NCBI GenBank assembly: GCA_963724765.1
Contig: CAVRVY010000004.1
Span: 1,472,001-1,536,000 of the forward strand
Reading direction: 5' to 3'
DNA from: an uncultured delta proteobacterium
GTDB lineage: Bacteria; Desulfobacterota; Binatia; Binatales; Binataceae
Length of the DNA stretch: 64,000 nucleotides
The notes beneath the pieces were generated by a model. That model had not been told where the DNA came from, searched no databases, and saw nothing but the letters and a program-made list of their open reading frames with translations. A program made the position numbers and the translations under genes. Below, one piece after another: positions 5,419-51,374 of this stretch; positions within the stretch are counted from its first letter, which is position 1; every line of letters starts with the position of its first letter.

Positions 5419-7452
5419 GTGAGCGCCACGATCCGCACCATGTGTCCCATGAATTGCTTTCCCACGTTGTGCGGGATGCTGGCCGAGGTTGAGGACGGAC
5501 AGCTCGTCGGCGTCCACGGCGACCCGGACAACCCGGACAGCCGCGGCTTCTTGTGTATCCGCGGTCAGGCCTCGCGCGAGATCATTGGCAACCCGCGCCG
5601 CCTGCTGATGCCGCTCCTGCGCGCGCGACGTGGCAACGAGTTGCGCCGCGCCTCGTGGGACGAGGCGCTGGATCTCATCGCCACGCGGATGCGCACGGCG
5701 GGGCGCGAGGCCGTCGGCACCTGGGCGGGGCATGGGCTTTTCGCCAACAACTATGGCACTCGCGTCGGATCGCATCTGGTGCGCCGCTTCTCGAACCTCT
5801 ACGGCTGTCAGTGGTGGAACCCGACGATGATTTGCTGGGGCCTCGGCGCCTTCGGCCTGGGCCTCACCGGCATCCTCGAGACCAACACCAAGGAGGACAT
5901 GGGCGCGCACGCAGCACTGATCCTGCTCTGGGGCGCAAACCTCGCGAGCCAGCCGAACACGGCGCGCCACCTCGTGTCCGCCAGGCGGCGCGGCGCGCAC
6001 GTCGTCACGATCGACGTGCGCCGCACCGAAGCGGCGGTGCAGTCCGACGAGACGCTCGTGATCCGTCCCGGGACCGACGCCGCGCTCGCGCTCGGCATGA
6101 TGCACGTCGTCGTCCGCGAGCGGCTGTATGACGCGGAGTTCGTGGCCCGCAACACCGTCGGTTTCGACGCGCTCGCGGCGCACCTCGAAGAGCACTCGCC
6201 ACAGTGGGCTGCCGGCATCACCGGTATCGCGACCGAGCGGATCACCGCCCTCGCACGGCGCTATGCGACGACGAAGCCGGCGATGCTCGTCCTCGGCGGC
6301 AGCTCTATGCACAAGGGCAGCAACGGCTGGCAGGGGGCGCGCGCTATTGGATGCCTTCCCGCGCTCACTGGCAACGTCGGCGTGCCTGGCGGCGGCTTCG
6401 GCCCGCGTCACGGCAGCGCCGTGCATGGCCAGGCGCTCAACAACGATCTGCTCGCGCTCGACCGGCGCCCGGCCGGACGGTACAGCCCGAACCAGATGCC
6501 GCGCATCACCGAAGCTTTGCTCGACGGCGACGTGCGCGTGCTCCTGCTGTTCGGCACCGACATGCTGTCGTCCTACGCTGACGCCGGAAGCCTGGCTGAA
6601 GGGCTGGCGCGCACCGACCTCGTGGTAAGTTACGACCTCTTCATGAACGATACCGCGCGGCGCTTCGCCGACGTCGTCCTGCCGGCCACGGCATGGCTGG
6701 AGGAGCTGGGCTGCAAGAGTACCAACACGCACCTGTACCTGATGCCGAAGGTGTTGGAGGCCGCCGGTGAAACACGGCCTATCGGGTGGGTGCTGAGCGA
6801 GCTGGCGCAGCGGCTGGGAGTGGCGGACTTCTATCCGTGGAAGAACGCGGAGGGACCGATCGACGCTATCCTCGATCATCCGGCGACCGGCCACGCGACG
6901 GTGGCAGCGCTGCGGGCTGAAGGCGGCATCCGCGCGCTGAACATTTCGCACGTGGCCCATCCCGATCTGCGCTTCCCGACGCCGTCCGGCAAAATCGAAC
7001 TGTACTCGGAGCGCGCGAAGGAGCTGGGGCTGCCGGCGCTGCCAGTGCATGAAGAGCACGAAAATCTTGCGGCGCAAGGCTACCCGCTCAGGTTCCGCCA
7101 GGGCCGCACGCTGACGCAATTCCACGGCTTCTATGATCACGGCCGCGCGCTGCCGACGCTCGCCGCCGCGGACCCGGAGCCCTTGTTGTGGATCTCGCGA
7201 GACGACGCGGCCGAGCGCGGCGTGAAGGACGGCGATGCAATCCGCGTTTACAACCAGCGCGGCGAGATGCAGGCGCGCGCGTGCGTGACCGACGATGTCC
7301 CGCCGGGCACCGTCTGGATGCGCGACGGATGGCTCGGACTCAACACGCTCACCGACGGCGCTGCGGTGATCCCTGATGAAGCGGTCGATGTCTTCGGCTT
7401 CTCTGGCGGTCAGGCGAGCTTCGACGCCGGCGTAGAGGTCGCGCCGCGCTAG
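5419..7452 (+). CDS. Molybdopterin (bis-PGD) oxidoreductase, single subunit
   Basis: CPMNC..LC...C Fe-S motif, SWDEAL, IRPGTDAALALG, ADVVLPA, TPSGKIEL, C-terminal dinucleotide-binding domain. Confidence 0.92.
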   Translation: MSATIRTMCPMNCFPTLCGMLAEVEDGQLVGVHGDPDNPDSRGFLCIRGQASREIIGNPRRLLMPLLRARRGNELRRASWDEALDLIATRMRTAGREAVGTWAGHGLFANNYGTRVGSHLVRRFSNLYGCQWWNPTMICWGLGAFGLGLTGILETNTKEDMGAHAALILLWGANLASQPNTARHLVSARRRGAHVVTIDVRRTEAAVQSDETLVIRPGTDAALALGMMHVVVRERLYDAEFVARNTVGFDALAAHLEEHSPQWAAGITGIATERITALARRYATTKPAMLVLGGSSMHKGSNGWQGARAIGCLPALTGNVGVPGGGFGPRHGSAVHGQALNNDLLALDRRPAGRYSPNQMPRITEALLDGDVRVLLLFGTDMLSSYADAGSLAEGLARTDLVVSYDLFMNDTARRFADVVLPATAWLEELGCKSTNTHLYLMPKVLEAAGETRPIGWVLSELAQRLGVADFYPWKNAEGPIDAILDHPATGHATVAALRAEGGIRALNISHVAHPDLRFPTPSGKIELYSERAKELGLPALPVHEEHENLAAQGYPLRFRQGRTLTQFHGFYDHGRALPTLAAADPEPLLWISRDDAAERGVKDGDAIRVYNQRGEMQARACVTDDVPPGTVWMRDGWLGLNTLTDGAAVIPDEAVDVFGFSGGQASFDAGVEVAPR

Positions 7453-35166: not shown

Positions 35167-35458
35167 GACGCATCGTAGCATTTGTTCGTTGCGTTAACCC
35201 ACATCGCCGGCTGTACCGATCGAACTAAAGATCGCGCCGGCCGCCGAAAGGCTGGCAGGTGTAAATTGGTCGCGATGCTGCCCGACGAGCCTACCAACCC
35301 GATCCGCCGGCAGTGTTGAGGTCATGCTCGAGGCGGTACGGGTGAGAGCGCCAGAGAGAAAATCCCTCACTGAAGCAGCCGGATAGACCGGTTGCACCGG
35401 AGTAAAAATCCGGCAGCAATAGCCCATTTGCCGTGGAACGGCAGAGGTGGGCGGAGGG

Positions 35459-36958
35459 ATGAAGCGGGTGGAACTATACGCGCAGGTTCGACGAGCGGTT
35501 TACGTGGAGGGGCTGAGTCGGCGGGAAGCAGCACGGCGCTTTGGGATCGACCCGCGGACGGTGGCGAAGATGCTGGCGTTCTCGGTGCCGCCTGGTTATC
35601 GACGGAGCCGGCCGCCGGCGCGGCCCAAGCTGGATCCGTTTGTCGGGATTATCGACCGGATCTTGGAAGAAGATAAGTTACGCCCAGCCAAGCAGCAGCA
35701 CACGGCGAAACGGATTTTCGAGCGGCTGCGCGATGAGCATGGGTATGACGGCGGGATCTCGATCGTAAGGGCTTACGTACACGAGCATCGCCAGCGGCTG
35801 CGCGAGATGTTCGTGCCACTGCACCATGATCCTGGACACGCGCAAGTCGACTTCGGTGAAGCGCTCGCGGTAATCGCAGGTGAGGAGTGCAAGATCCACT
35901 TCTTCGCGATGGACTTGCCGCACAGCGATGCTTGTTTGGTGCAGGCCTATCCGGCGGAGAGCACCGAGGCCTTCTGCGAAGGTCACAACGTCAGCTTCGA
36001 GTTCTTTGGCGGAGTGCCGCGTTCGATCCTCTACGACAACACCAAGCTGGCGGTGGCGCGCATACTCGGAGATGGCACCCGTAAGCGCACCAAGGTCTTC
36101 AGTGAGCTGCAGTCCCACTCTCTGTTCGCCGATCGCTTCGGGCGGCCGGGCAAGGGTAACGATAAGGGCAAGGTCGAGGGGTTGGTCGGCTATGCGCGGC
36201 GCAACTTCATGGTGCCGATCCCGCGCGCACTCAGCTTCGCTGAGCTAAATGAGCAGTTGCTGGAGTGCTGCCGCCGTCGTTTGAAGGATCGGCTACGTGG
36301 TCATGATGACACCATCGGCGAGCGGCTGGTGAAGGACCGTGAGGCTCTCCTGCCGCTGCCGCCCGCACCCTATGATGCGTGCGAAAAGAGGCCCGCCTGG
36401 GTCAGCTCGTTGTCGCTGGTGCGCTACCGCGGCAACAACTACTCAGTGCCAAGCGCATACGGTCACCGCGAGGTGCTGGTCCGAGGTTACGTCCACGAAG
36501 TTGTGATCGCCTGTGCAACCGAGGAGATCGCCCGGCACGCTCGTTCCTACGAGCGCGAGGACTTCGTGTTCAACCCACTGCACTACCTGGCCCTGCTGGA
36601 GCGGAAGATCGGCGCGCTGGACCAGGCCGCGCCGCTGGTCGGCTGGGAACTACCTGAAGAGTTCGCAACGCTGCGCCGGCTGCTCGAAGCGCGCCTGCGC
36701 AAGCCCGGTAAGCGGGAGTTCGTTCAGGTCCTGCGCTTGCTCGAGGTGTTCGGTCTCGAAGACGTGGTCGCAGGAGTTCGAGAAGCGATCGATCGCGGAG
36801 TGATTAGCTTCGACGCGGTCAAGCATCTCGTGCTGTGCCGCATCGAACGGCGCCCACCGCGACTCGACCTGAAGATCTATCCCTATCTGCCACAGGCGAC
36901 TGTGAGCACCACCTCGGCCCGATCCTACCTGAGCCTGATGGCGGGAGCAGGTTCATGA
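35459..36958 (+). CDS. istA: IS21 transposase IstA
   Basis: N-terminal HTH, AQVDFG, ILYDN, KGKVEG DDE motifs. Confidence 0.96.
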   Translation: MKRVELYAQVRRAVYVEGLSRREAARRFGIDPRTVAKMLAFSVPPGYRRSRPPARPKLDPFVGIIDRILEEDKLRPAKQQHTAKRIFERLRDEHGYDGGISIVRAYVHEHRQRLREMFVPLHHDPGHAQVDFGEALAVIAGEECKIHFFAMDLPHSDACLVQAYPAESTEAFCEGHNVSFEFFGGVPRSILYDNTKLAVARILGDGTRKRTKVFSELQSHSLFADRFGRPGKGNDKGKVEGLVGYARRNFMVPIPRALSFAELNEQLLECCRRRLKDRLRGHDDTIGERLVKDREALLPLPPAPYDACEKRPAWVSSLSLVRYRGNNYSVPSAYGHREVLVRGYVHEVVIACATEEIARHARSYEREDFVFNPLHYLALLERKIGALDQAAPLVGWELPEEFATLRRLLEARLRKPGKREFVQVLRLLEVFGLEDVVAGVREAIDRGVISFDAVKHLVLCRIERRPPRLDLKIYPYLPQATVSTTSARSYLSLMAGAGS

Positions 36959-37731
36959 GCGATACGCCCCAGGTTCTGCTCACCCATTACTTGAAAACAC
37001 TCAGATTGCCCACCTTTTTGCGCGAGTATGACAAGTTGGCGCGCCAATGCGCCGGCGAGGATGTCGACTATCCTCGCTACCTGTTGCGCCTGGCCGAGCT
37101 GGAGATGATCGAACGGGAACGCCGGACCATCGAGCGGCGAATCAAGGAAGCCAGGTTCCCGGCGGTCAAAAGTCTCGATAGCTTCGAATTCGCAGCGCTC
37201 CCCTCGCTCAACAAGACGCTAGTGCTGGAACTGGCCCGCTCGGAGTATATCGCGCGCCGCGAGAACATCATCGCGGTCGGCAACAGTGGCACCGGCAAGA
37301 CTCATGTGGCTCTCGGGCTAGGTCTGGCCGCCTGCCAGAAGGGTCTCGCGGTCGGCTTCACCACCGCTGCCGCTTTGGTCAACGAGCTGCATGAAGCGCA
37401 TGATGAGAAGCGTCTGCTGCGCCTCCAACGTCAACTCGCCGGCTACAAGCTTCTGATCGTGGATGAACTCGGCTACGTCCCGCTCTCCCCAACTGGTGCA
37501 GAGTTACTGTTCGAAGTCTTCAGCCAGCGCTACGAGCGCGGCTCGATCATCGTTACCAGCAATCTGCCGTTCGATGAGTGGACCAGCGTGTTCGGCTCCG
37601 AGCGCTTAACCGGCGCACTGCTTGATCGTCTTACCCACCACGTTCACATCCTCGAGATGAACGGTGACAGCTTCAGGCTCAAACACAGCAAGCGCCGCAT
37701 CAGTGACGATCAACCGCGAGAATCCGGCTAA
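36955..37731 (+). CDS. istB: IS21 helper ATPase IstB
   Basis: GNSGTGKTH, LIVDELGY, TSNLPF.EW, ALLDRLTHH; ATGA overlap with istA. Confidence 0.96.
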   Translation: MSDTPQVLLTHYLKTLRLPTFLREYDKLARQCAGEDVDYPRYLLRLAELEMIERERRTIERRIKEARFPAVKSLDSFEFAALPSLNKTLVLELARSEYIARRENIIAVGNSGTGKTHVALGLGLAACQKGLAVGFTTAAALVNELHEAHDEKRLLRLQRQLAGYKLLIVDELGYVPLSPTGAELLFEVFSQRYERGSIIVTSNLPFDEWTSVFGSERLTGALLDRLTHHVHILEMNGDSFRLKHSKRRISDDQPRESG

Positions 37732-37994: not shown

Positions 37995-38422
37995 GATTCC
38001 GCCTGATTACTCGCTGGTCGGAGCGCGTACCGTTCTGTATGACGGCTACCGGAGTTGCAGGATTTAGGCCGTTTTCGATGAGGCGCTGAGCGATCAGTGC
38101 AGCCGTTGCGATACCATATAGACAACCAAGGTTTGCCGTGCGCGTGTCAGCGAAGCCCAGTCGGGGTCCGGCTCTCCGTTCTTCGAATGCCCGGTAATGA
38201 AGGTTACGGCGCTCGCGTTGCCACGGTCAGTGAGGGAGATTCCGGCGGAAGCCGAGCAGGCCACTGCGGCAGTGATGCCGGGTAACACCTCGACGCGGAT
38301 ACCGCGGGCGCGCAGATAGCTCAGTTCTTCATTACGTCGGCGTATTGCATCACGCGAAGCGCTCGCAACGTCAGTAAATCAGGGTCCCCCGGTCCTGCAC
38401 CCACCAGATATACCGCACCTTC
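37995..38422 (-). pseudogene. cobA: Uroporphyrinogen-III C-methyltransferase relic with internal deletion and frameshifts
   Basis: [27 protein letters not shown] fused directly to [22 protein letters not shown]...TLVVYM; the RLKGGDP segment is missing. Confidence 0.85.
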
Positions 38423-38602
38423 GGTCCCGACCGACAATCGCAGGCATGATGAAGGTGGACAGCTCCAGTCTTAGATAGTTTCGAAGACGACGAAAGAGCT
38501 CGAATCGCCGATGCTAGTGTTCTGTCTCATAAATAGCCAGTAACATCGAGCATCTGCTAAATGTTTCCCATCAGCACAAGTTGGACAGGATGGAGTGAGG
38601 AA

Positions 38603-39826
38603 TCAGACGCTGACAGTGGTCCCACGATAGTAATGCTGCAAGATTTCTGTGTAAGTATTGCCCTCATTTGCCATGACTGCCGCGCCGATCTGGCATAGGC
38701 CGACACCATGTCCCCAGCCGGCCCCTCTCAAGACAAAGCGGCCAGACTCTTTGTCTACGACGAATGCAGAGCTGTAAAGATGCGTGCGCGATAAAGCGCG
38801 GCGAATTTCCAGTTCTTTACCGATGATCACGTGATCGCGTTCCCCGGTGATCTTCAGCCGATATATTCGGCCTGAAGGTCCGCGAGCGAGGGCCTGCACG
38901 TCGCGAATCGGACCAAGGCCCACGGCAAGCCTGGATCTGATCAGATCGGCGAGTTCTTCGGGCGTGTACTCGACCCGCCAGCGATAGAAATCACGGGTCT
39001 CCTGATCGAATCCTGGGAGAACACGTGAAAGGAGCTCCGAATCGTGGGTATTGCAGTAAGCGGGCGGGTTTGAGCGCATCCATATCTCAGGACTGTAAGA
39101 GCAGGATTGCGCCGGACCGTCGTAGACAGACTCTAGATAGGGAATATCTTCATCTTCCCAGGCGGTCGCATAACGCTCGGTTATTCCGCCGCAGGACTTG
39201 GAAAACCGTGCATCGCAGATAGCGCCGTTGTAACGGAGAAACTCGCCGGCTGTCGCGCGAACCGCTTCGGCTGCAGCCGGAGAGAACGCTTTCGTGATAC
39301 CCTGATACCGCTGGCAGTGGTCGTCGGCGCATACATCGAAATCCGGATGAGCTTCGCGGCCGTACCAGCGAAGGATTTCGTGAGAATCGAGACCCTCACT
39401 CTGCCCTCTCCCGGAGCGAGAGGGATGCGCTTTCGGAAACCACAGCCAGCTGCGCGAAATCACCGCGTGAGCTTTCAGCAGTTCAAGAGGACAGGACGCG
39501 CTCATCTCGGATGAAATCACGCTCGTGACGTACTCTTCGAGCGAAACATCATTAATCACCGTCAGACCGGCTTCTCGTTTCACGAGGCGAAAAGCCCCAC
39601 GGAATACCTGGCGCTCCTTGCGTTCCCAGTGAAATCCGATTCCTATCGTGACGTCGTCCAGCGCAAACGCGCACGACGCCAGGTCCGACGGAGTAAGCGT
39701 AACTTCAGAGGTGAATCTATAACGCCCGGGCCTGTATGGGTTGCCGGACGTATCCACAAACATGCCGCCCATCAATTCGACTTCAATGGCGGATTGTTCT
39801 TCAATCAGCCCTACAGATAGGTCCAA
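38603..39826 (-). CDS. SpoIID/LytB family lytic transglycosylase, no signal peptide
   Basis: INDVSLEEYV.SVISSEM, LKAHAVISRS, CADDHCQRYQG, GWGHGVGLCQ.GA, ILQHYY. Confidence 0.92.
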   Translation of the reverse strand: MDLSVGLIEEQSAIEVELMGGMFVDTSGNPYRPGRYRFTSEVTLTPSDLASCAFALDDVTIGIGFHWERKERQVFRGAFRLVKREAGLTVINDVSLEEYVTSVISSEMSASCPLELLKAHAVISRSWLWFPKAHPSRSGRGQSEGLDSHEILRWYGREAHPDFDVCADDHCQRYQGITKAFSPAAAEAVRATAGEFLRYNGAICDARFSKSCGGITERYATAWEDEDIPYLESVYDGPAQSCSYSPEIWMRSNPPAYCNTHDSELLSRVLPGFDQETRDFYRWRVEYTPEELADLIRSRLAVGLGPIRDVQALARGPSGRIYRLKITGERDHVIIGKELEIRRALSRTHLYSSAFVVDKESGRFVLRGAGWGHGVGLCQIGAAVMANEGNTYTEILQHYYRGTTVSV

Positions 39827-40716
39827 CGCTCGCTCTCCAGCTTCTCGGCGACTTCCCGAAACTGACCGTCAGCCAAAGTGACCTCGCGAAAAATTGCGGC
39901 AATCGCGTCACCCGTGATTCTTTCGAAATCGTGCGCCAGCGGCACGACAAATATTCCGCACAAATCAATCGATGCCGGACTCACCGTCAATTCGCCCGTG
40001 TGAAAGACCGCCGGCCGATGTTTTCCTCGCGGGAACAGATACGTGACCCACTCCCCTCTCTCTCGAAAGACCGCAAGGTTAACCAACGGTTCCGCTCGTT
40101 TGCCAGTCGTTTCCACGAGTAGATCGATGGCACGATCCATTCGATCGATCAAAGCAGATCGATCCCGTCCACGAAATAAGAACACATTTCTTCCGTAGTT
40201 CGGCACGGCAATGCCAGTCAGTCCAGCGGTGTCCTTTTCTATCGGAAGCAATTCGCGCGAGCCTGCCTGAAAGTGCATGTGGTCTGGTGCGGACGCTCCG
40301 CATTCTGGACCGTTATAGATGACGAAATATCCAGGCAGGGCTGCAGCAAGGTCCAGCATATTTCCGAAGTGGTTCGCGATGCGCTGCAAGCCGTGTTCTC
40401 TGTGAGCGATCGTAAGGTGACGATCCACGATTGGAAACGGATTGCAGTAGATCGTGAAGTCCTCATCAAACTGCACACCCTCCTCCTCCGGAGGTAAATT
40501 TCCCGCACATAGGAAGCAGGGGCGTTTCGCAACCGACTCCCGGTCGACAGACGCCGTTGTACTGCCCATACGATGGGGGATGTGACGGATGAAGATGTCG
40601 AACCAATCGATCCGTACCGGCCGTGTCTTCGCCCGCGCCAGGCCTTCAATGCCTTTCGCGAGTTGCGGCCATGCCCGCGCCTGCCGTTTAAACAGTTCTT
40701 CTAGTTCGCGGATCAT
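39811..40716 (-). CDS. DUF4922 protein (HIT/GalT-like nucleotidyltransferase-phosphorylase)
   Basis: RPCFLC, NPFPI, YNGPECGASAPDHMHFQ (HxHxQ), VSPASID. Confidence 0.85.
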   Translation of the reverse strand: MIRELEELFKRQARAWPQLAKGIEGLARAKTRPVRIDWFDIFIRHIPHRMGSTTASVDRESVAKRPCFLCAGNLPPEEEGVQFDEDFTIYCNPFPIVDRHLTIAHREHGLQRIANHFGNMLDLAAALPGYFVIYNGPECGASAPDHMHFQAGSRELLPIEKDTAGLTGIAVPNYGRNVFLFRGRDRSALIDRMDRAIDLLVETTGKRAEPLVNLAVFRERGEWVTYLFPRGKHRPAVFHTGELTVSPASIDLCGIFVVPLAHDFERITGDAIAAIFREVTLADGQFREVAEKLESERWTYL

Positions 40717-41987
40717 CGCCGTATTCGAGCCTGGATCTCGATAGTTCGGAGCCAGTCCTTGTACAGATCGTATCGATTCGCAACCTCGAGCGGCAGGGCG
40801 CTATCGCTATTGCCTTCCCAACGGCGGCAAAGATAAACGGAGTCGTAGATCCGGGCTATCTCATACTCACGGCTAATGCGCAGCGCTACGGCGTAATCCT
40901 CACCATAACTTACATTCGGAAATCCGATACGGCGCAGAACCGACGTATTGAATGCGCGCGGCGCGCCAAGTCCATTGACACGGAGCGCATTGTTTCTTCC
41001 GTTCTCGCGAGTCCACTCGCGATGGTCGATAAGACCGGGCGGAATCTCCTTCAACCCAAAATCGACCATTGTATAGGAACCTATGACCATCGCATAAGGT
41101 CCCGCTTCAAGTTCTGCAACGATCCGGCGAAGGACGCCGTCATTTATGTACAGGTCGTCAGAATCAAGCTGGATAGCGTATTGTCCGCAGTCCCTGGAAT
41201 AAATCGCCTCGTTCCAGCATCCGCCGATTCCCAAGTCCCGGCGCTCGGGAACGACGTGCTTAACACGCGAATCACTGATACCGCGCAGGATTTTCGTCGT
41301 CCGATCCGTCGAATGGTTATCGACGACGATCAAATTGAATTCGAAATCAGCACTCTGGGCGAGGGCGCATTGAACAGCGTCGAGAATTGTCCGCTCGCGA
41401 TTCCGAACTGGTATGACGACGCTGGCTTTTACCGGAAATGTTTCGGCTGCGGCTGGAACTTTCTCGAAGTGCGGCTGCAACCAGGCGCCGATTCGCTTTA
41501 GATGCGCCGTCGCGATGCGCTCCATTTCGATTTGATAATCGCGATTGCGCGGATCCACATAATCGAATTGCTTTTGACCCGTCGGCCGCGCATCAATCAT
41601 CGACGCGCTGTACAACGGTTCGGGAATCCGCACGATGGCGTGCTTTTCCGATATCCTTAACCGCAGGTCGTATAGTCCTCCCCATTTCCACGCGCTGTCG
41701 AGTCCCGACTGACGCGCGGCCTCAACGGACACACCAACTACCGGGCCGAAGTCGAAACCGTCGCGGACGCTCCCGCTTTGATAGTCGATACGAGGATGGC
41801 AGGCCGCGTCGGCATAAACCCAGCCGCCGCCGGCCTCACGTATGACCCGCGCCATTCGATCGAACATGCGCGGTCCGGGCTCGATGTTCACACGCGGATC
41901 CCCGAGAAAGAGGACATCGGCATCGGCGGCCTCGACGAGTCTCTGAATACTCGCGGATGAGTAGTCCTTTGGATAGACTATGTTCAC
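40713..41987 (-). CDS. Two-domain GT2 glycosyltransferase
   Basis: RDGFDFG, LYDLRL; SVVIPVRNR, VDNHSTD, QLDSDD, SYGEDY, RRWEGNSD. Confidence 0.9.
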   Translation of the reverse strand: MNIVYPKDYSSASIQRLVEAADADVLFLGDPRVNIEPGPRMFDRMARVIREAGGGWVYADAACHPRIDYQSGSVRDGFDFGPVVGVSVEAARQSGLDSAWKWGGLYDLRLRISEKHAIVRIPEPLYSASMIDARPTGQKQFDYVDPRNRDYQIEMERIATAHLKRIGAWLQPHFEKVPAAAETFPVKASVVIPVRNRERTILDAVQCALAQSADFEFNLIVVDNHSTDRTTKILRGISDSRVKHVVPERRDLGIGGCWNEAIYSRDCGQYAIQLDSDDLYINDGVLRRIVAELEAGPYAMVIGSYTMVDFGLKEIPPGLIDHREWTRENGRNNALRVNGLGAPRAFNTSVLRRIGFPNVSYGEDYAVALRISREYEIARIYDSVYLCRRWEGNSDSALPLEVANRYDLYKDWLRTIEIQARIRR

Positions 41988-42059
41988 ATTCCACCCCGCC
42001 GCTTCGCGCCATCTCTCCTCCGCGAAAAGGGAATTCGCCTCATCGATAAACGTGTCATC

Positions 42060-42791
42060 CTAGTTACTAACCGCAACCCGTTCTGTAGCCTCTTGCGGCC
42101 GCACCACGATGACGCCGGCCATTCGATTTGCTTTGAGAAACTCGCTCAATTCCTGTTCCACGACAAAGCCCCGGCTGCGCGACGCGTGACGCATAAGCAT
42201 GCTTTTGCCATCGTGCACGATGATTCCGGCGTGAAACACATCGAGATTCTTGCGTGTGGACACGAAACAAATCAAATCACCGCTCTGCAAATACGCTGCG
42301 AGCCGCGGCACTGCGGGCTTTGGTACACATTTCACGCGAGTCAGCTGTGCAGCGAGTCCGGGTACGACGTTCAAGACGCGTTCCCTGCTGAGTATCGGGA
42401 CCGCGGGCATTGAAACCGGCCTGATTATCCCTTCGCGTACATTGTTGCGAATCCAGAGCGTCATGTAGTGATTCCGCCGTTCCCATTGAATACGGCCTCG
42501 TTCATATCGAATCTTTCGCAGCCACTCGATAAAGTCATCAACGTTCGAAGCGCGCGCGAGAGCCAAAATTGTTTCAATGTACGTGACACAGTCGAATCCA
42601 TCGAGGGAAGCCGTGAACACTTCGGCTGTGTCGGCCGATCCAATCAGCGGATTTGGTTTGTAGGGATGTCCAAGGAAGTGGCGGGAGAGAACGTCAATTC
42701 GGCTACCGGCGGAACGCTCATACTTCGTTTCCGATAGAAGCTGCTCCACGTGGCGCCGGCTGAGATCTCGTGGTCGGGGATGCTTCATCAA
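42060..42791 (-). CDS. DUF1460 NlpC/P60-like N-acetylmuramoyl-L-alanine amidase
   Basis: FLGHPY, FDCVTYIE (catalytic Cys), RNHY, DVFHAGI, HAS. Confidence 0.85.
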   Translation of the reverse strand: MMKHPRPRDLSRRHVEQLLSETKYERSAGSRIDVLSRHFLGHPYKPNPLIGSADTAEVFTASLDGFDCVTYIETILALARASNVDDFIEWLRKIRYERGRIQWERRNHYMTLWIRNNVREGIIRPVSMPAVPILSRERVLNVVPGLAAQLTRVKCVPKPAVPRLAAYLQSGDLICFVSTRKNLDVFHAGIIVHDGKSMLMRHASRSRGFVVEQELSEFLKANRMAGVIVVRPQEATERVAVSN

Positions 42792-42820
42792 AATTTCATT
42801 TTAGCACGCACTTTCGAAAT

Positions 42821-43387
42821 TTATCCCTCGGCGCCTGGCGGCTCAAGCGGCAGGACGAATCCATCAGGGTCATGAAAGTCCGGTTTGTCGGCCGGATGGT
42901 GAAGCGCCCAGTACGAGAGCCCGTCGCTCGCCTCGATGACCGCCGAGAGCCCGATACGAAGAGAAGCACGCGCGTGGATAGCAGACAGGCCATTTAGGCG
43001 GACAAGGGTGTCGAGCTCAAGTCGGCTGCCAGTAGAGCGCACGTCAATGTCCGGGCGCATCATTTCGTTCGCGAGAGGACCGCCGTTACGATAGCCGCAA
43101 AAGGCGTAGACGGCCCACTCCCCCGACGGGGCAAAGTTGAACTCGTGGTACGCCGATTGCCCTTCCACCGCGATGAAGGCTTCGAAACAGGTGTGGCGCC
43201 AGAGCTGTGTAGCGATGCGCGGCGCACTCGGCGAAGGGACCAAGATCCGGCGAATATCTCCGTCGAGGCGGAAGGTCATCTGAAGTTCAGCGCTTGCCGA
43301 TCGGCGTACGAGCACCTGAATGGCTCGCACTGTCTCAGGGCGTGTCGACGGATGGCATCTGAGGTCGATCCAGTGTTTGACGGTCAT
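42821..43387 (-). CDS. DOMON-like domain protein
   Basis: LWRHTCFEAF, YHEFNFAPSGEW, SYWALHHP..KPDFH. Confidence 0.85.
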   Translation of the reverse strand: MTVKHWIDLRCHPSTRPETVRAIQVLVRRSASAELQMTFRLDGDIRRILVPSPSAPRIATQLWRHTCFEAFIAVEGQSAYHEFNFAPSGEWAVYAFCGYRNGGPLANEMMRPDIDVRSTGSRLELDTLVRLNGLSAIHARASLRIGLSAVIEASDGLSYWALHHPADKPDFHDPDGFVLPLEPPGAEG

Positions 43388-43671
43388 AACGGGCTCGATG
43401 GCCGCAGCGGCGTTGCTCTCCGACCGGAATATCGAAATCGCGACGCCTTGTATGCGAGGGACACCGACGGATTATGGCGCAGAGAGAAACTCGGCGAAAC
43501 CGGCGTGGACGCCGGGAACCCGATTCTCCGGTGTCCTTCAAATCATGCGAAAGCCGCAGACACGTTCGATTTCGTCGGTGTTGTCACAGAAGACGGGCAA
43601 TTCGAGACTCGACTGCCAATAAGTGATCGGTTCATCAAGTAATCACGACTAGCCGCATCTTCGCGCAAACA

Positions 43672-44691
43672 TCACGTACGCCCTTTTCTTAGAGCCATCC
43701 AAGTTGCGCTTCCAACCGCGAGTGCGGCTAATCCGAGCCAGACACGATGAGTAGTCGCCCAAAACTGCAGGCTACTTCCATGTGCCTGAGTGTCGAAGCT
43801 GCCGTGAGCGCCAGGATCCCAGGCTACAGGGGTGAAGAGATTGTCCGGTCGGTCGGAGTTAACCGGCTGGTTGGTTTGCTGGCCATTGTAGCAGGTGCGG
43901 GCAAGGTAGTGATCCAGTAGTCCGGGAACGATCTTATTGCCTATAATGGCCTCGACAGTAGGTTCGCCAACATAGATTTCGCGCCGTTTGTGATATGCGG
44001 CCCATACTATGGCCGCCGCGGCCACTTCGGGCTGAAAGATAGGAGGTACAGGCTGAGGATGGCGCGGTAGGCGAGTTTTGCACCAATCGAACTGTGGGGT
44101 ATTCAGCGCGGGCATCTGGACCATGGTAAGGTGGACTTTGCTGTGATCGTGCAGCAGTTCCGAACGCAAAGAATCCGTAAACCCCTTGATTGCATGTTTG
44201 GCGCCGCAGTATGGAGCCTGAAGGGGAATTGAACGGTAAGCGAGCGCGGAACCCACCTGGACAATGCAGCCTCGATCGCGTGGTAACATGCGTCGCAGCG
44301 CGGCCATCGTGCCGTAGACCGCACCCAGATAAGTGACCTCCGTCACGCGCTTGAACTCTTCGGCAGTGATCTGCTTGAAGGGTGATAGTACCGTTGTCAT
44401 GGCATTGTTCACCCAGATGTCGATTGGACCGAATTGCTCTTCGACTGCCGTTGCGGCGCTTTCTACCTCATCGGGACGCGATACATCGGTGGCAATAGCC
44501 AGCGCCGTGCCTCCGGATGCTTCGACGTCAGCGCGGGCTCCCTCCAGCCCGTCAGCTCCGCGAGCCAGCAGACCGATTTGCGCACCCCGTCTGGCAAAGG
44601 CTTGTACAGTCGCGCGCCCGACACCGGCTGATGCACCGGTCACAACAACCACATCACGTTTATTACTGCTGCCATTTCCGAGCGCACTCAT
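43672..44691 (-). CDS. SDR oxidoreductase with C-terminal membrane anchor
   Basis: TGASAGVG, NNA, YCGAK, NTPQF. Confidence 0.92.
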   Translation of the reverse strand: MSALGNGSSNKRDVVVVTGASAGVGRATVQAFARRGAQIGLLARGADGLEGARADVEASGGTALAIATDVSRPDEVESAATAVEEQFGPIDIWVNNAMTTVLSPFKQITAEEFKRVTEVTYLGAVYGTMAALRRMLPRDRGCIVQVGSALAYRSIPLQAPYCGAKHAIKGFTDSLRSELLHDHSKVHLTMVQMPALNTPQFDWCKTRLPRHPQPVPPIFQPEVAAAAIVWAAYHKRREIYVGEPTVEAIIGNKIVPGLLDHYLARTCYNGQQTNQPVNSDRPDNLFTPVAWDPGAHGSFDTQAHGSSLQFWATTHRVWLGLAALAVGSATWMALRKGRT

Positions 44692-46083: not shown

Positions 46084-47820
46084 TTACTTCAATCGCGGAG
46101 CGCCATGACCCCACGTCGCCGGAGGTGACAGGTCGCGCCGAACGGGTGGTCGCCCCATGTCGCGCTTATCGGCATTAAATATCTTTTCACCCTGCGCGAT
46201 CAGGTAATCGGCGGTGCGTGCGGCGAGCGCTTGAATCGTCAGTCCCGGATTTACGGAACCCTGCGTGGGCATGACGCTGCCATCGCAGATGAACAGATTC
46301 GCGATGTCGTGACTACGTCCATATCTGTCGACTACTGAGGTAGCCGGGTCGTTGCCCATGCGTGCCGCTCCAACCAGATGCGCGTAGCGCGCTTCCTGGA
46401 CAACTTCAGTGGCACCGGCCGCTCGCATGACTTCCATTACTTTGTTCTTGCCGAACTCGATCATCTTCTTGTCATTGTCATACAGATTGAAGGTCACTTT
46501 GGCGACGGGGATACCAAACCTGTCCTTTTCTGCGGCCAATTGAACCCGGTTGTCCGCATACGGCAGAATTTCACCCAGCAGCCCAAGCGCGGCCCAGTGA
46601 TTGTAGTCCATCATGACGCGCCGCAAGCCCCATCCCCAGGCCCCCTTCGCGGTCATCATCTGCTTGGCGAAGGCTATAGGCAGCGGCCCCACTGTCTGAA
46701 TCGCAAACCCGCGTGCGAAATCGCGCTTGCGGTCCGTCTCGTAGAACTCCTCGGTCATTGCATGGGCCGGTGGCGCCTTGTACATGCGGATCAGTTCATC
46801 GAAGTAGCCCATCACGACATTCCCTGCCTGCGCCATCAGATAGCGGCCTACGGTATCACTTGAGTTTGCAAGACCGTTTTCAAATCCGAGACAAGCCGAA
46901 TTAAGTAAAAGGCGCGGTGTCTCGATCGAATAGCAGGCTACGATGACGGCTTTGGCATTCTGGCAGTGCTCGCGGCCATCGCGATCGAAATAGGTGACTC
47001 CACTCACCCGCCCATCGGTACCAAGGTTAACGCGTGAAACCATGGACATCGGCCGAATTTCCGCGCCGTTCGCGATTGCGTCGGGCACGTGGGTGATCAG
47101 AGTGCTGGCCTTTGCGCCGACCTTACACCCTTGAATGCAGAAGCCTCGATAAATGCAGTGCGGCCGGTCGGCGCGAGAGCCCTGTAGGATGCCGACCGGG
47201 CCGCCGGCACTCACGCGGATGCCGAGTTTGGTACAGCCGCGAATCAACACATCGCCAATGGCTCCCATGGGATGCGGACCGAAGGCATATCCGTGAGGAT
47301 CGCCCCATGGAAAATACGCCGGTCCCGAGACCGGCATTTCCATTTCGATTAGCTCGTAATACGGCTTCAGTTCCTCATAACTGAGAGGCCAGTCCACGGC
47401 GACGCCATCTTGAGAATGCACGCGAAAATCCGACGGATGAAGGCGCGGGGTGAAGGCCGCCCAGTGTACCGTGCTACCGCCGACGCCTTTGCCACTATTG
47501 TTACTTCCGAAAGCGAGTGGATGAGCCCCGCCAGTGATGCGGAGATCCTCCCAATAGAGCTGATGAGAACCAGCCTCATCGCTTACCCAATCCCGTTCGC
47601 TATCCCAGAACGGGCCCGCATCGAAGCCAATGACCCGAAAGCCTGCCCGCGCAAGTCGTTGCAAGAGAACGCCGCCGCCCGCACCGATACCAACGATGAT
47701 GTAATCGACCTCTTGTTTCTCGGAGAACCGGCGCATCGGCGTTTCGAGCCGCTGCATACTGCCTAACATATGAGGCTGGCCGTTCGGCTTTTCGAACTCT
47801 CCGAGAATCGGGGATTTCAT
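46084..47820 (-). CDS. GMC oxidoreductase (gluconate/fructose dehydrogenase large-subunit-like)
   Basis: GIGAGG, VGGST, CIYRGFCIQGC Fe-S motif, HLVGAARMG, NPGLT. Confidence 0.92.
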   Translation of the reverse strand: MKSPILGEFEKPNGQPHMLGSMQRLETPMRRFSEKQEVDYIIVGIGAGGGVLLQRLARAGFRVIGFDAGPFWDSERDWVSDEAGSHQLYWEDLRITGGAHPLAFGSNNSGKGVGGSTVHWAAFTPRLHPSDFRVHSQDGVAVDWPLSYEELKPYYELIEMEMPVSGPAYFPWGDPHGYAFGPHPMGAIGDVLIRGCTKLGIRVSAGGPVGILQGSRADRPHCIYRGFCIQGCKVGAKASTLITHVPDAIANGAEIRPMSMVSRVNLGTDGRVSGVTYFDRDGREHCQNAKAVIVACYSIETPRLLLNSACLGFENGLANSSDTVGRYLMAQAGNVVMGYFDELIRMYKAPPAHAMTEEFYETDRKRDFARGFAIQTVGPLPIAFAKQMMTAKGAWGWGLRRVMMDYNHWAALGLLGEILPYADNRVQLAAEKDRFGIPVAKVTFNLYDNDKKMIEFGKNKVMEVMRAAGATEVVQEARYAHLVGAARMGNDPATSVVDRYGRSHDIANLFICDGSVMPTQGSVNPGLTIQALAARTADYLIAQGEKIFNADKRDMGRPPVRRDLSPPATWGHGAPRLK

Positions 47821-48584
47821 TTGTTGCTTCCCCGGCGTGCATGAGAGGGATGCTCAATTGGACTCTGTGCCGGTTCGTAGATGTCGGAGACGGAGGTTTC
47901 CGGTGCGCTCCAGGCGTAGCGCTGCTCGTTCGATTCCCAGGGCTCAGGTTCGCCATTTTCCAGCCGCATGTAGGCTCGCGGATAGGCGGGACCGCCGAAT
48001 CCGATCTCGTCCCAAGCCCACGGATGTGCGTAATACGCCTCCGCGCAATCCTGCACCAGCATCATCCAGAAGCGGTGCACCGGGAGGCGCGCCCAGATGT
48101 CACCGCCCGCAGCAGTTTTTCCGTCGTGCAGCGATTTCAGTAGCTGATCCTGCTCGAGTGGAGTGATATCAATGAAGTTGCGGCCATAGAGATGGTGCGC
48201 GATCTCTTCAATAGCCTGCAATCCCAGACGGAAAGCCTCCCGGTCCGGCGGCATATCCGCAAACCGATAGCCGTCGTGCCGATCTTCGTACAAGCGTTCG
48301 TCAATGCGCGGCACGATCGGGATCTTGTGCGCTTCATCGCGATCATTCTGTGGAATGATATGATCGCAGACGGACTGCATCAGACGCGCCTCAGCGGGGG
48401 AGAAAAAGCGGATCGCCGGGACGTTATGCACGCGATCGATAACCACTTGACGGGTTTTCGCGTCCCAGAATTTCTGTTGCGCCAGCGTGCTGAAGTCAGG
48501 ATAGTACCCCGGCTGAGACAGCGGACCGATCGGTTTTCCGCTGCGCCGGTTGATTGGACGACCGTCATCCTCCTGCCGCTTCAT
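47817..48584 (-). CDS. Gluconate 2-dehydrogenase subunit 3 family protein
   Basis: FFSPAE, HIIP, YYAHPWAWDEIGFGGPA; ATGA overlaps at both ends. Confidence 0.85.
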   Translation of the reverse strand: MKRQEDDGRPINRRSGKPIGPLSQPGYYPDFSTLAQQKFWDAKTRQVVIDRVHNVPAIRFFSPAEARLMQSVCDHIIPQNDRDEAHKIPIVPRIDERLYEDRHDGYRFADMPPDREAFRLGLQAIEEIAHHLYGRNFIDITPLEQDQLLKSLHDGKTAAGGDIWARLPVHRFWMMLVQDCAEAYYAHPWAWDEIGFGGPAYPRAYMRLENGEPEPWESNEQRYAWSAPETSVSDIYEPAQSPIEHPSHARRGSNK

Positions 48585-49579
48585 CGCTTCTCTCTCCTCA
48601 ATAGGCTCGCTAGAAGACCGATGAAGCCGGCTGCCGCGAACAGCAGTGGCGCGAAAATGGGGGGTCCATGGACAATATTGTAGAGCGGCATCTTCAATCC
48701 GCCAGGACGGCGCAGAACACCTCGCGCGTGATAGCCGAAGCCCACCGCACCATCCAGCACGGCCACGGTTGAAAGGGCTGGCAGCCAGGTCTGGGCGACG
48801 CGCTGATTCCTGGCGGCGCCCACGCTCGCCGCCACTAGTAGCGGCGCGATCACTACGGGCGTCCACTGTGCTTTGTAACGAAAATTGCTTTTGTAATGTG
48901 AATACCACGCTTCAAAACCGCTAAAGAGAGCCGACACGGCTGTCGCAACGGCCATGTGCTTTTGAAATCGACCTTCGCGCAGATCCTGCCGCCACTCGAT
49001 AGTGTCATGCTCATTAGTCAGAAGCCTCGCCCAATGTTTGGGATGTGCCGGGCGCGGAAGTGCCGCTGAGCTACTCGGATCATCGTCACGCTGAAGAAAA
49101 CTCGCGACCATGCCAAGGTATGCACTGGTGCCGAACAGGAGTGGCCCAAATACAGGCGGCCCCATGATGATGTTAACCACGGGCAGACGCCAACCTCCGG
49201 GTTTGCGCTGAATTCCACGTATGTGGAAGTAGGTGCCGATCGCGCAGTCGGCAAGCGTGAGAGCCGAGACCGCGGGCAAAACCGTTCTTGCGGCTCGGCG
49301 GCTGCGAAAGGCCAATACACCCGCTCCAAAGAGCGCGGCGCCCATGATTACGGGCGTATACATTACGCGGCGGCTGTAGCTACCGCGATAATGCATGTAG
49401 CTGACTTCCAGACCGCCAAGGGCGCTGGACAAACCCGCCGCGAGCGCGAGCCATTTCTGAAATCGTCCTTCGCGCACGCGCAGGTCAACTTCCCGTGCGC
49501 CGCACTCGATGCCTCTGACCACTTCCGGTATAAGCACGCTCTGTAATCTGTCTGCGGCCACTTCGGCTGCTCCCGTCAA
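48581..49579 (-). CDS. Polytopic membrane protein with internal duplication and conserved His
   Basis: Two repeats of REGRFQK..E....HY..TPV..D...G..[FY]H.RG...PGG..GPP.F.PLLF; TTG start inferred. Confidence 0.8.
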   Translation of the reverse strand: MTGAAEVAADRLQSVLIPEVVRGIECGAREVDLRVREGRFQKWLALAAGLSSALGGLEVSYMHYRGSYSRRVMYTPVIMGAALFGAGVLAFRSRRAARTVLPAVSALTLADCAIGTYFHIRGIQRKPGGWRLPVVNIIMGPPVFGPLLFGTSAYLGMVASFLQRDDDPSSSAALPRPAHPKHWARLLTNEHDTIEWRQDLREGRFQKHMAVATAVSALFSGFEAWYSHYKSNFRYKAQWTPVVIAPLLVAASVGAARNQRVAQTWLPALSTVAVLDGAVGFGYHARGVLRRPGGLKMPLYNIVHGPPIFAPLLFAAAGFIGLLASLLRREKR

Positions 49580-49580
49580 A

Positions 49581-51374
49581 TCATTGTTTATGCGGCACCA
49601 CGCTCTCGACGAATTCCCGAATCGACTCACGAATGATGCCGCCTTCGTTGGGATCGCCCTTGAACAACGTGGAGGCGAATTTTGCGGCCTGCGCCAGCGT
49701 GATATGCGGCGGCAATGGCGGCACGTCAGGATCGGTAATCGCTTCCAGCACGCAAGGACGATCGCTCGCTAGCGCTTCATCCCACGCCTGGCCTAAAGCA
49801 TCAGGTTGATCGACACGGATGCCCTTCAACCCCAGCAATTCGGCATAACGCGCGTATGGAAAATCGGGGATGTCCTGTGACGCCTCGAACTTTGGATCAC
49901 CCATCATCACCCTTAGTTCCCACGTCACCTGATTAAGATCATTGTTGTGCAGAACCAGTACGATAAGGCGCGGGTCTTTCCATTCGCGCCAGTACTTCGC
50001 GACTGTGAGCAGTCCACTGTTTCCATTCATCTGCATGGCGCCGTCGCCAACCATCGCGATCACCACGCGTTCCGGAAAAGCAAATTTTGCGGCGATGGCG
50101 TAAGGAACCCCGGGACCCATCGTGGCCAGGGTTCCAGACAAAGAGGCCATCATGCCGCGCCGTATCTTCAGGTCACGGGCGAACCAGTTGGCCGACGAAC
50201 CTGAATCGGAACTTAAGATGCAGTTATCGGGCAGCCGCGGGGAGAGCTCCCAGAACACGCGCTGGGGATTGATTGGTTTGGCTTCGCTCATCGCCCTGGC
50301 CTCGAGCACCTTCCACCATTTGGCAACCTCTTTTTCGATCGTTTCACGCCAGGATCGGTCAGCCTTCCGTTCCAGGTAAGGAAGCAATGCCTTTAGCGTC
50401 TCGTTGCTGTCGCCGACCAGGTTAACTTCGGTGGGGAATCGGATCGCCAGCATGCGGCCGTCGATATCGATTTGGACGCCGCGCGCCTGACCCTCCTTGG
50501 GCAGAAATTCGGAATATGGAAAACTGGTTCCGACCATCAAAAGCGTGTCGCACTCCATCATCATGTCGTAGCTCGGCTTGGTGCCGAGCAGCCCGATAGA
50601 TCCCGTAACAAAAGGAAGGTCGTCCGGGAGCGCCGCCTTGCCCAGCAAGGCCTTGGCAACACCGGCTCCCAGGATATCCGCGACCTCAATCACCGCATCG
50701 GTTGCCTGGAGCGCGCCTGCGCCAACTAACATCGCAACTTTTTTGCCGGCATTGAGTATTTCCGCCGCGCGTCGCAAATCCTCATCCGAAGGAATGACCC
50801 GCGGTGTCGAGTAGCCGGTGCCGGAATGGATCGTGTTATGCGCCCGGCTGGGTTCCTCTGCCTCCAGCTCTTGCAGGTCGTTTGGCACGATGATGCAGGT
50901 TACCGTGCGCTCCGCCTTGGCTATTCGAACCGCGCGATCGACCAAATGCCGAGTCTGCGCGGGGACTGAAGCCATATGGACGTATTCACCCGCCACATCT
51001 TTAAATAGTGTGGTTAGATCGACTTCCTGCTGGTAGCGTCCTCCCTGGGCCGCACGCGCCGCCTGACCCACGATAGCCACTACCGGCTGATGATCTCCCT
51101 TGGCATCGTACAAGCCATTGAGCAGATGAATCGCGCCAGGCCCGGAGGTTGCGAGACAAACGCCTACCTCGCCGGTGAACTTGGCGTGCGCACAGGCCAT
51201 GAAGGCGGCCATCTCCTCATGTCGAACCTGCACGAACTTTGGCTTGTTACCCGCGCGTTCGAGGGCGCCTAGAATGCCGTTGATACCATCGCCCGGGAAA
51301 CCGTAGATTCGGTTAATGCCCCAGTCCAAAAGACGCTTCAGAAGAAAATCGGCAACACTTTCACTCATGGACAT
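49581..51374 (-). CDS. Thiamine-pyrophosphate-requiring enzyme (pyruvate oxidase-like)
   Basis: GFPGD, RHEE.AAF.A, TSGPG, GDGAMQMNG..HNN. Confidence 0.92.
   Translation of the reverse strand: MSMSESVADFLLKRLLDWGINRIYGFPGDGINGILGALERAGNKPKFVQVRHEEMAAFMACAHAKFTGEVGVCLATSGPGAIHLLNGLYDAKGDHQPVVAIVGQAARAAQGGRYQQEVDLTTLFKDVAGEYVHMASVPAQTRHLVDRAVRIAKAERTVTCIIVPNDLQELEAEEPSRAHNTIHSGTGYSTPRVIPSDEDLRRAAEILNAGKKVAMLVGAGALQATDAVIEVADILGAGVAKALLGKAALPDDLPFVTGSIGLLGTKPSYDMMMECDTLLMVGTSFPYSEFLPKEGQARGVQIDIDGRMLAIRFPTEVNLVGDSNETLKALLPYLERKADRSWRETIEKEVAKWWKVLEARAMSEAKPINPQRVFWELSPRLPDNCILSSDSGSSANWFARDLKIRRGMMASLSGTLATMGPGVPYAIAAKFAFPERVVIAMVGDGAMQMNGNSGLLTVAKYWREWKDPRLIVLVLHNNDLNQVTWELRVMMGDPKFEASQDIPDFPYARYAELLGLKGIRVDQPDALGQAWDEALASDRPCVLEAITDPDVPPLPPHITLAQAAKFASTLFKGDPNEGGIIRESIREFVESVVPHKQ

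Follow-up and report, generated by a model that had tools for sequence, protein, structure and literature searches.

Gene content and organization of the cluster

We analyzed a 64,000-nt stretch of contig CAVRVY010000004.1 (hereafter, the window), from the assembly GCA_963724765.1 of a soil bacterium of the Binataceae (an uncultured delta proteobacterium), and focused on a gene cluster that may constitute a route for the cytoplasmic salvage of peptidoglycan fragments. The cluster (38603-43387) consists of five consecutive, co-oriented open reading frames (ORFs) on the minus strand, encoding, from 5' to 3', a predicted beta-sandwich protein that we call p188 (42821-43387, 188 aa), an AmiA-like putative amidase (42060-42791, 243 aa), a soluble two-domain glycosyltransferase of family 2 (GT2; 40713-41987, 424 aa), a DUF4922 protein (39811-40716, 301 aa), and a SpoIID/LytB protein (38603-39826, 407 aa). 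The GT2 and DUF4922 genes overlap by 4 bases and the DUF4922 and SpoIID genes by 16, with gaps of 29 bases between p188 and the amidase and 72 bases between the amidase and GT2, in agreement with an initial annotation that had described five co-oriented genes, three of them overlapping. The catalytic motifs that this annotation had listed as intact (SSEM and Cys/His residues in SpoIID, DCVT and a histidine in the amidase, HMHFQ in DUF4922, and DSDD in GT2) are all present, and most of them are invariant in alignments of 29-42 homologues.

The proposal that all five proteins lack an export signal was borne out by their hydropathy profiles, which revealed neither a hydrophobic N-terminus nor a span-like stretch: in the first 50 residues, the Kyte-Doolittle mean of 15-residue stretches peaked at 0.13-0.93, and over the whole proteins that of 19-residue stretches peaked at 1.10-1.71. 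Upstream extensions carrying such a signal were not found for any of the five genes, as no in-frame ATG, GTG or TTG occurs among the 3-28 codons that separate each start from the preceding stop. The five proteins are thus predicted, by sequence, to be cytoplasmic.

The overlaps between stop and start codons point to translational coupling. In a scan of positions 38000-44000 we detected two promoter-like and three terminator-like sites, which did not exceed the expectation from shuffled sequences. Contigs assembled from RNA libraries of relatives (~88-92% identical; four libraries, three studies) span the cluster and extend across each of its four gene junctions; such contigs do not prove a single transcript, and since libraries of this kind can hold DNA, the bridging is weak evidence. 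We infer that the five genes form an operon in this organism.

Predicted activities of the encoded proteins

The putative N-acetylmuramoyl-L-alanine amidase belongs to the NlpC/P60-type family PF07313, formerly DUF1460 (E 3.3e-41, 141.4 bits against a cut-off of 27), and is related to the PDB structures 2p1g (4.7e-16) and 4h4j/4q5k/4q68 (6.1e-15). Its DCVT motif (residues 67-70, with Cys68) and His187, located within VFHAG (185-189), both align to 2p1g; the family is described as having a Cys-His-His catalytic triad (PMC10318531). AmiA of Bacteroides uniformis (4h4j/4q5k), a member of the same family in which the Cys and His are aligned with those of the window protein, is reported to hydrolyze the peptide-bearing disaccharide of N-acetylglucosamine (GlcNAc) and 1,6-anhydro-N-acetylmuramic acid (anhMurNAc), GlcNAc-1,6-anhMurNAc-peptide, a specificity known for that member only (PMC4600125). 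The AmiA domain of B. thetaiotaomicron was placed in the periplasm in an mBio 2015 report, whereas the window protein is signal-less. By analogy, we propose that the window amidase acts as a counterpart of AmpD, with the difference that it is a cysteine enzyme of the NlpC/P60 type while the AmpD of Escherichia coli and Pseudomonas recycling is a zinc amidase.

The SpoIID/LytB protein matches PF08486 (E 4.8e-24, 85.3 bits against a cut-off of 23) and TIGR02669 (178.5 bits against 83.3), and its gene is the single copy of its kind in the window genome. With its PDB relatives, the SpoIID structures 4rwr, 5i1t and 5txu, it shares the SpoIID/LytB domain, the SxEM motif and an aligned C-terminal GHGVG block. 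SSEM (105-108) aligns with ASEM of B. anthracis SpoIID (4rwr), and its E107, which we take to be the catalytic Glu of SpoIID lytic transglycosylases, is invariant among 29 sequences, as are C166, H170 and C171 of CADDHC (166-171). The window protein does not qualify as sporulation SpoIID proper, because its score against the spore_II_D equivalog model TIGR02870 (143.8 bits) is far below the cut-off of 234.75, and because it has no membrane anchor or hydrophobic N-terminus. It also has, in contrast to sporulation SpoIID, an added N-terminal domain in which an FHWE motif is invariant, as well as the subfamily-invariant Cys and His residues. Characterized SpoIID proteins are extracytoplasmic lytic transglycosylases; none of the 28 homologues of the window protein that we inspected, from four phyla, has a hydrophobic N-terminus.

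The DUF4922 protein (PF16269; E 1.1e-51, 175.1 bits) is a predicted HxHxQ enzyme of the HIT superfamily, of the type that includes phosphorylases and nucleotidyltransferases acting on nucleoside diphosphate (NDP) sugars, and gives weak matches to GalT models of NCBIfam. Its HMHFQ motif (146-150) is invariant among 39 sequences. When solved structures were searched with the single sequence no match was found, and a profile search of the PDB returned as its sole match the yeast Ap4A phosphorylase Apa2 (4i5t), a marginal similarity (E 2e-4) in which the shared HxHxQ motifs coincide, HMHFQ aligning with DHKHLQ of Apa2. The match to Apa2 and the literature using the term DUF4922, which as far as the searched texts go concerns GDP-L-galactose phosphorylase (VTC2/GGP) or GDPGP1, presumably place the protein in the transferase/phosphorylase branch of the superfamily; in contrast to these enzymes and GalT, DUF4922 always has a GT2 as its partner, either as a neighbor or within the same protein. 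One homologue (P0376) joins DUF4922 to a GNAT acetyltransferase, and in four ignavibacterial-type loci (L051, L056, L058 and L064) a GNAT gene lies between GT2 and DUF4922, a pairing that recalls the acetyltransferase-plus-uridylyltransferase GlmU.

The GT2 protein combines a truncated GT-A-like domain (residues 1 to ~170) with a GT-A domain (184-424) that contains DSDD (275-278), a motif invariant in an alignment of 42 sequences with 79 invariant columns, and that matches PF00535 over residues 189-327 (E 2.2e-19, 70.4 bits). Its AlphaFold2 (AF2) model (pLDDT 89) aligns over residues 1-424 with the chondroitin polymerase K4CP (2z86; Foldseek E 2e-17; VIA Z 21.7), and the segment 184-424 with 6p61 and with soluble GT2 enzymes such as WrtF, PmHS2, TarP and TarS (VIA Z 18-21.7), so that the C-terminal domain is, by its model, a canonical GT-A of glycosyltransferase family 2. 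K4CP and PmHS2 (8vh7) have the same tandem GT-A architecture; in contrast to theirs, the N-terminal domain of the window protein is truncated and has no evident DxD, and the identity is ~17-18%. This domain yielded GT2-like clusters in the ESM Atlas at 0.94, a weak match; compared with its Bacteroidota counterparts, it is missing ~65 N-terminal residues in Binataceae and Acidobacteriota, which makes a second canonical nucleotide site doubtful here. A complex prediction of GT2 with DUF4922 scored 0.00 against a mark of 0.32, a result that says nothing for or against binding.

No Pfam or NCBIfam model matched p188 over threshold. Its best Pfam match was CBM9_2 (E 0.12, 12.6 bits against a cut-off of 25), which reaches E <= 0.01 in 3 of 52 family members, and the ESM Atlas returned unnamed clusters only. 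The AF2 model (pLDDT 95.5) was matched by Foldseek to 4jpq (E 1e-6, TM 0.69-0.72), to 2ivf_C, the gamma subunit of ethylbenzene dehydrogenase, and to the CBM9 structures 7nwn and 1i82, so that the modelled fold is that of a DOMON/CBM9-superfamily beta-sandwich; NCBI names the homologues 'DOMON-like domain-containing protein'. The family comprises 4234 representatives at E <= 0.001 and has invariant Glu, His, Trp and Arg residues.

Conservation and fusion of the cluster genes

Out of 554 confirmed relatives of the window DUF4922 we kept 80 loci (L001-L080), of which L001-L040 are the 40 closest. These loci span Binatota, Acidobacteriota, Bacteroidota and Ignavibacteriota, and the closest ones (up to 94% identity) come from metagenome-assembled genomes (MAGs) labelled Candidatus Binataceae or 'delta proteobacterium'. 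GT2 is encoded directly upstream of DUF4922 in 79/80 loci, the remaining locus being cut at its end, and the GT2-DUF4922-SpoIID trio is found in 71/80. Among the 9 loci with no SpoIID match, 3 end <230 bases past the DUF4922 gene; of the remaining six we tested five, and in each of these five genomes a signal-less SpoIID orthologue is encoded elsewhere (E <= 1e-198). Identity across phyla is ~50% for GT2 and SpoIID and ~37% for DUF4922. All five genes occur in the same order in 31/40 of the closest loci, and their grouping, like that of the trio, exceeds chance.

The trio genes are also frequently fused. Precomputed Pfam assignments for 120 listed longer homologues of DUF4922 revealed 66 GT2+DUF4922+SpoIID proteins (~1070-1295 aa), 21 DUF4922+SpoIID, 32 GT2+DUF4922 and one GNAT+DUF4922; four fusions, one of each kind, were re-scanned and showed the assigned architectures, among them P0299 (1272 aa), which stands for 1247 member sequences. 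The frequency of fusion implies that the trio enzymes act as a single biochemical unit. This bears on the possibility that SpoIID/LytB leaves the cell by an unconventional route, perhaps along with the amidase, to work on the sacculus of the producing cell itself, with GT2 and DUF4922 as unrelated neighbors. Such a role would accord with the extracytoplasmic location of characterized SpoIID proteins, and the corresponding Tannerella forsythia gene is annotated as an 'amidase enhancer precursor' (PMC5388701). We nevertheless consider it extremely unlikely, given that 87 of the 120 listed proteins join DUF4922 to SpoIID, 66 of them with GT2 as well, that a hydrophobic N-terminus is absent from the window SpoIID and its 28 homologues alike, and that the overlapping genes appear translationally coupled.

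The two upstream genes have a narrower distribution. The amidase gene lies directly upstream of GT2 in 35/40 of the closest loci and is preceded by p188 in 31/40, and neither was found in the 40 Bacteroidota-type loci. In the seven longer homologues of p188, the protein is fused to PF07313 (5), to NamZ_N (1) or to a short-chain dehydrogenase/reductase (SDR; 1), and in L024 (a palsa MAG) a single ORF of 434 aa (5412-6716) encodes p188 together with the AmiA-like domain. Among 150 further genomes sampled from the phylum, eight carry a p188 homologue, whose same-strand neighbor is an APH-family kinase in four cases (L086, L088, L090 and L093), the exo-muramidase NamZ in three (L089, L091 and L092) and neither in one. 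The one kinase of the four that was compared with the PDB matched the N-acetylhexosamine 1-kinase NahK over its full length (2.4e-53); NCBIfam provided no name for the kinases. The NamZ and NahK-like neighbors and the AmiA fusions make p188 a marker of N-acetylmuramic acid (MurNAc) or N-acetylhexosamine (HexNAc) salvage, and its family looks like an unrecognized part of amino-sugar salvage.

We also considered that p188 and the amidase form a separate pair that merely abuts the trio in Binataceae and shares no pathway with it. The 72-base gap upstream of GT2, the trio-only loci of Bacteroidota (0/40 with p188 or the amidase) and the occurrence of p188 homologues in genomes devoid of DUF4922 (8/8) would fit such an arrangement. 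It is hard to reconcile with the position of the amidase gene immediately upstream of GT2 in 35/40 closest loci, including the acidobacterial L034, L036 and L037, which have no p188, and RNA-library contigs bridge the amidase/GT2 junction, a weak argument in the same direction; we regard two independent units as very unlikely.

The initial annotation had associated the linkage of SpoIID, DUF4922 and GT2 with Bacteroidetes and raised horizontal transfer from there. The linkage does occur in that group, where the trio was found in 34/201 sampled Bacteroidota genomes (with B. thetaiotaomicron as positive control), and is also present in Binatota, Acidobacteriota and Ignavibacteriota. As for transfer, a quick, unrooted GT2 tree placed the window protein with Binataceae and Acidobacteriota, apart from Bacteroidota and Ignavibacteriota (SH-aLRT 99 on both sides), DUF4922 is present in 47/81 Binataceae genomes, and the cluster does not stand out from the flanking DNA in its G+C content (0.56-0.57). 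The transfer is therefore unsupported, and on this tree we rejected a recent one from Bacteroidota.

Association with peptidoglycan salvage

In the Bacteroidota/Ignavibacteriota-type loci (L041-L080), the trio is followed on the same strand by an AmpG-like gene in 25/40 cases, and NamZ is present in 15/40; for L047, the AmpG assignment was verified with NCBIfam. The order in Bacteroides is a secreted 621-aa protein, GT2, DUF4922, SpoIID, AmpG and NamZ, and ignavibacterial loci add genes for a BadF-type sugar kinase, GNAT and GH3. Neither AmpG nor NamZ was found in the flanks of the cluster in the window or in L001-L040. The tie to the salvage of peptidoglycan fragments, postulated from the window alone, thus gained support from three sides: the position of the trio beside AmpG and NamZ, the substrate of the amidase family, and the position of p188 homologues beside NamZ and NahK-like kinases.

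The closest described system is the T. forsythia operon Tanf_08345-08370, given as xanthan lyase, gtf, gtf, lytB, ampG and ybbC/namZ1, which is transcribed together with murTKQ and regulated by GppX (PMC5388701). It contains the same three enzyme types in the same order as the window, an equivalence that we derive from the Bacteroides gene order and not from Tannerella sequences. Unlike this operon, the window cluster, which belongs to the phylum Binatota, lacks neighboring genes for AmpG, NamZ and MurTKQ and carries the AmiA-like and DOMON-like genes instead. Both gtf genes are stated to be without assigned function, and Tanf_08360 is called a putative lytic transglycosylase, in a preprint (bioRxiv 10.1101/2021.12.02.470905). 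Reports on T. forsythia further describe an organism with no predicted AnmK, in which the fate of anhMurNAc 'remains to be explored' (PMC7670621), without glmS, glmU, murA and murB (PMC5790795), and with a second gene for a MurNAc kinase immediately upstream of this operon (PMC10465942).

The linkage of the trio is therefore already in print, function-less, for T. forsythia, and we found no paper that gives the trio a function in a literature search that lay outside subscription journals. New here are the joining, in Binataceae, of the trio to the amidase and to the DOMON-like protein, two partners that are fused to each other elsewhere; the link of the DOMON-like family to salvage; a host genome in which the canonical downstream enzymes that we looked for were not found; and two family-level surveys against AnmK.

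Recycling enzymes in the host genome and association with AnmK

The window genome (97% complete) encodes an AmpG that scores 476.5 bits against TIGR00901 (cut-off 350), and an S66 peptidase of the LdcA type. In this genome we found no AnmK, GH3/NagZ, GH20 or Amidase_2/AmpD, no MurQ over cut-off, and no NamZ or BadF/MurK-like or NahK/AmgK-like kinase. The route had been proposed to be distinct from AnmK/MurQ and AmgK/MurU, and indeed none of the enzymes of those routes was detected. With the canonical enzymes not found, the cluster stands as the only recognizable candidate for the cytoplasmic steps that follow import, and, as it contains no kinase, phosphate or nucleotide chemistry is favored. 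Compared with the recycling of E. coli and Pseudomonas (AmpG, AmpD, NagZ, AnmK and MurQ, or the AmgK-MurU shunt), the presumed substrate would be the same, entering through an AmpG-family permease and meeting a cytoplasmic amidase, whereas the enzymes further downstream come from other families.

At the S66 locus (L105; contig C1, 778809-780820), the peptidase gene adjoins an ORF that resembles the C-terminal, non-GH3 part of an ignavibacterial GH3 fusion, and may mark a second small muropeptide-recycling locus.

We surveyed DUF4922 and AnmK in 81 Binataceae genomes of at least 85% completeness and found both in 15, DUF4922 only in 32, AnmK only in 25 and neither in 9 (odds ratio 0.17, Fisher p 3e-4); the corresponding numbers in 201 Bacteroidota genomes were 15, 19, 121 and 46 (odds ratio 0.30, Fisher p 0.002), p-values that overstate the case because related genomes are not independent. 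Excluding five unpublished Binataceae genomes (G228, G192, G171, G215 and G194) left counts of 15/32/20/9 (odds ratio 0.21, Fisher p 0.002). At the level of genera, 9 of 28 in the Binataceae had DUF4922 only, 9 AnmK only, 10 both and none neither. DUF4922 and AnmK are thus negatively associated in both groups. A strict model in which the trio replaces AnmK was rejected, as many genomes hold both: AnmK occurs in 15/47 of the DUF4922-positive Binataceae, in 15/34 of the Bacteroidota and in 4/9 of the other trio genomes. The trio can be, at most, a partial alternative to AnmK. A wider sample of the phylum (151 genomes) contained DUF4922 in 12 genomes at E <= 1e-40 and in 17 at E <= 0.001, and AnmK over cut-off in 20; no genome had both where 1.6 were expected, numbers too small to tell.

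Another genome of the same genus (G196) carries an AnmK fragment with three in-frame stops (contig C2, 21990-22373) and has kept DUF4922, so that AnmK may be decaying in the presence of the trio.

Genomic surroundings of the cluster

Directly downstream of the SpoIID gene, on the plus strand, lies an IS21-family element (35447-37731) that encodes IstA, with a Mu-transposase C-domain, followed by the IstB ATPase. Its insertion appears specific to this genome, since the relative L004 has in its place a gene with a radical-SAM-like CxxxCxxC motif, as read from the sequence. The genes upstream of the cluster are unrelated and encode SDR, enolase-superfamily, glucose-methanol-choline (GMC) oxidoreductase and thiamine pyrophosphate (TPP) enzymes. 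A separate co-oriented block on the minus strand (46084-51374) comprises a GMC oxidoreductase, a protein similar to subunit 3 of gluconate 2-dehydrogenase, a membrane protein with no Pfam match, and a TPP-dependent enzyme.

A model for kinase-independent salvage of anhydromuropeptides

Taken as a general reading, we assign a probability of roughly 75% to a function of the cluster in cytoplasmic salvage of peptidoglycan fragments. We hold it slightly better than even that the specific scheme is correct as a whole, namely that the five genes form one operon for the stepwise, kinase-independent salvage of GlcNAc-anhMurNAc-peptides; for this scheme we infer every substrate and reaction direction. 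AmpG, encoded elsewhere in the genome, would import GlcNAc-1,6-anhMurNAc-peptides, from which the AmiA-like cysteine amidase would strip the stem peptide in the place of AmpD while p188 binds the sugar part. CBM9 modules bind reducing ends, and we propose that p188 is a sugar-binding helper of the amidase that recognizes the reducing or the anhydro end; its invariant residues would also suit a mutarotase-like role, which is speculation. A characterized relative of the SpoIID-like enzyme needs peptide-free glycan. The trio would then convert the peptide-free disaccharide without NagZ, AnmK, MurK or AmgK. In this conversion, the SpoIID-like enzyme would act at C1 of MurNAc or anhMurNAc, the sole bond type that the fold is known to handle. 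The initial annotation had inferred cleavage of the imported fragments, but the disaccharide that enters through AmpG lacks the MurNAc-GlcNAc linkage on which a canonical lytic transglycosylase acts. GT2 and the HxHxQ enzyme would work as a coupled pair on UDP-HexNAc, or another NDP-HexNAc, and HexNAc-1-phosphate, so that the sugars would be returned to metabolism in the form of sugar-1-phosphates or nucleotide sugars, with the energy of the glycosidic or anhydro bond kept.

A bolder version specifies the chemistry of the trio. Here, SpoIID would run the lytic-transglycosylase reaction in reverse, opening the 1,6-anhydro ring of the peptide-free GlcNAc-anhMurNAc onto phosphate or another acceptor at no cost of ATP; the HxHxQ enzyme would turn the HexNAc- or MurNAc-1-phosphate into a nucleotide sugar, or phosphorolyze one; and the coupled GT2 would handle the GlcNAc-beta-1,4 bond through a UDP-GlcNAc intermediate, a UDP relay in place of NagZ. 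The trio would thereby substitute for NagZ, AnmK, MupP, AmgK and MurU, and p188 would be a new module of the cytoplasm, binding MurNAc ends or resembling a mutarotase, that NamZ and NahK-type kinases make use of as well. We consider this version distinctly unlikely.

Several observations weigh against the stepwise scheme, beyond the co-occurrence with AnmK described above. The export-signal call rests on a hydropathy heuristic and not on SignalP, the reactions of the trio are predictions, and the gene for AmpG (contig C4, ~387-389 kb) lies ~1.1 Mb away from the cluster among unrelated genes. None of the eight p188-bearing genomes of the phylum sample has DUF4922, and p188 is accordingly not dedicated to the trio. 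GT2 enzymes are normally synthetic in direction, the GNAT-DUF4922 fusion and the ignavibacterial GNAT gene hint at the synthesis of UDP-HexNAc and not at its breakdown, and the T. forsythia operon is labelled 'glycosylation related', its regulator affecting S-layer glycoproteins (PMC5388701).

The last two of these points, together with the alignment of the GT2 model with K4CP over both of its domains, are what a biosynthetic role would lead one to expect. In that case the trio would assemble a glycan or glycoconjugate in the cytoplasm, with salvaged amino sugars as building blocks and the cell wall as a supply of sugar only: DUF4922, joined in some lineages by GNAT, would make UDP-HexNAc or another NDP-HexNAc out of HexNAc-1-phosphate, the double GT-A protein would polymerize or transfer it in the manner of two-domain glycosaminoglycan synthases, and SpoIID would trim or release the peptide-free product. 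Several findings speak against this. The N-terminal GT2 domain, shortened by ~65 residues, is doubtful as a second canonical nucleotide site; the neighbors of the trio are importers and degradative enzymes (AmpG, NamZ and the amidase); no flippase, polyprenyl-phosphate transferase or exporter was seen in the neighborhoods of the loci; and a negative association with AnmK would not be expected. Biosynthesis is the main rival of salvage, and on balance an unlikely one.

The cluster bears on how imported anhydromuropeptides are processed in bacteria without NagZ, AnmK or AmpD, a question raised for anhMurNAc in the T. forsythia literature (PMC7670621). The Binataceae cluster has its own amidase, and apart from LdcA the canonical cytoplasmic recycling enzymes that we looked for were not found in its genome, so its proteins are suited to reconstitution in vitro. 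If salvage by the cluster is true, and if it proceeds by phosphorolytic or nucleotide-sugar chemistry, it would represent a new recycling pathway, with a bearing on the release of muropeptides by gut Bacteroides, and thus on their sensing by the host, as well as on the turnover of cell-wall carbon and nitrogen in soil.

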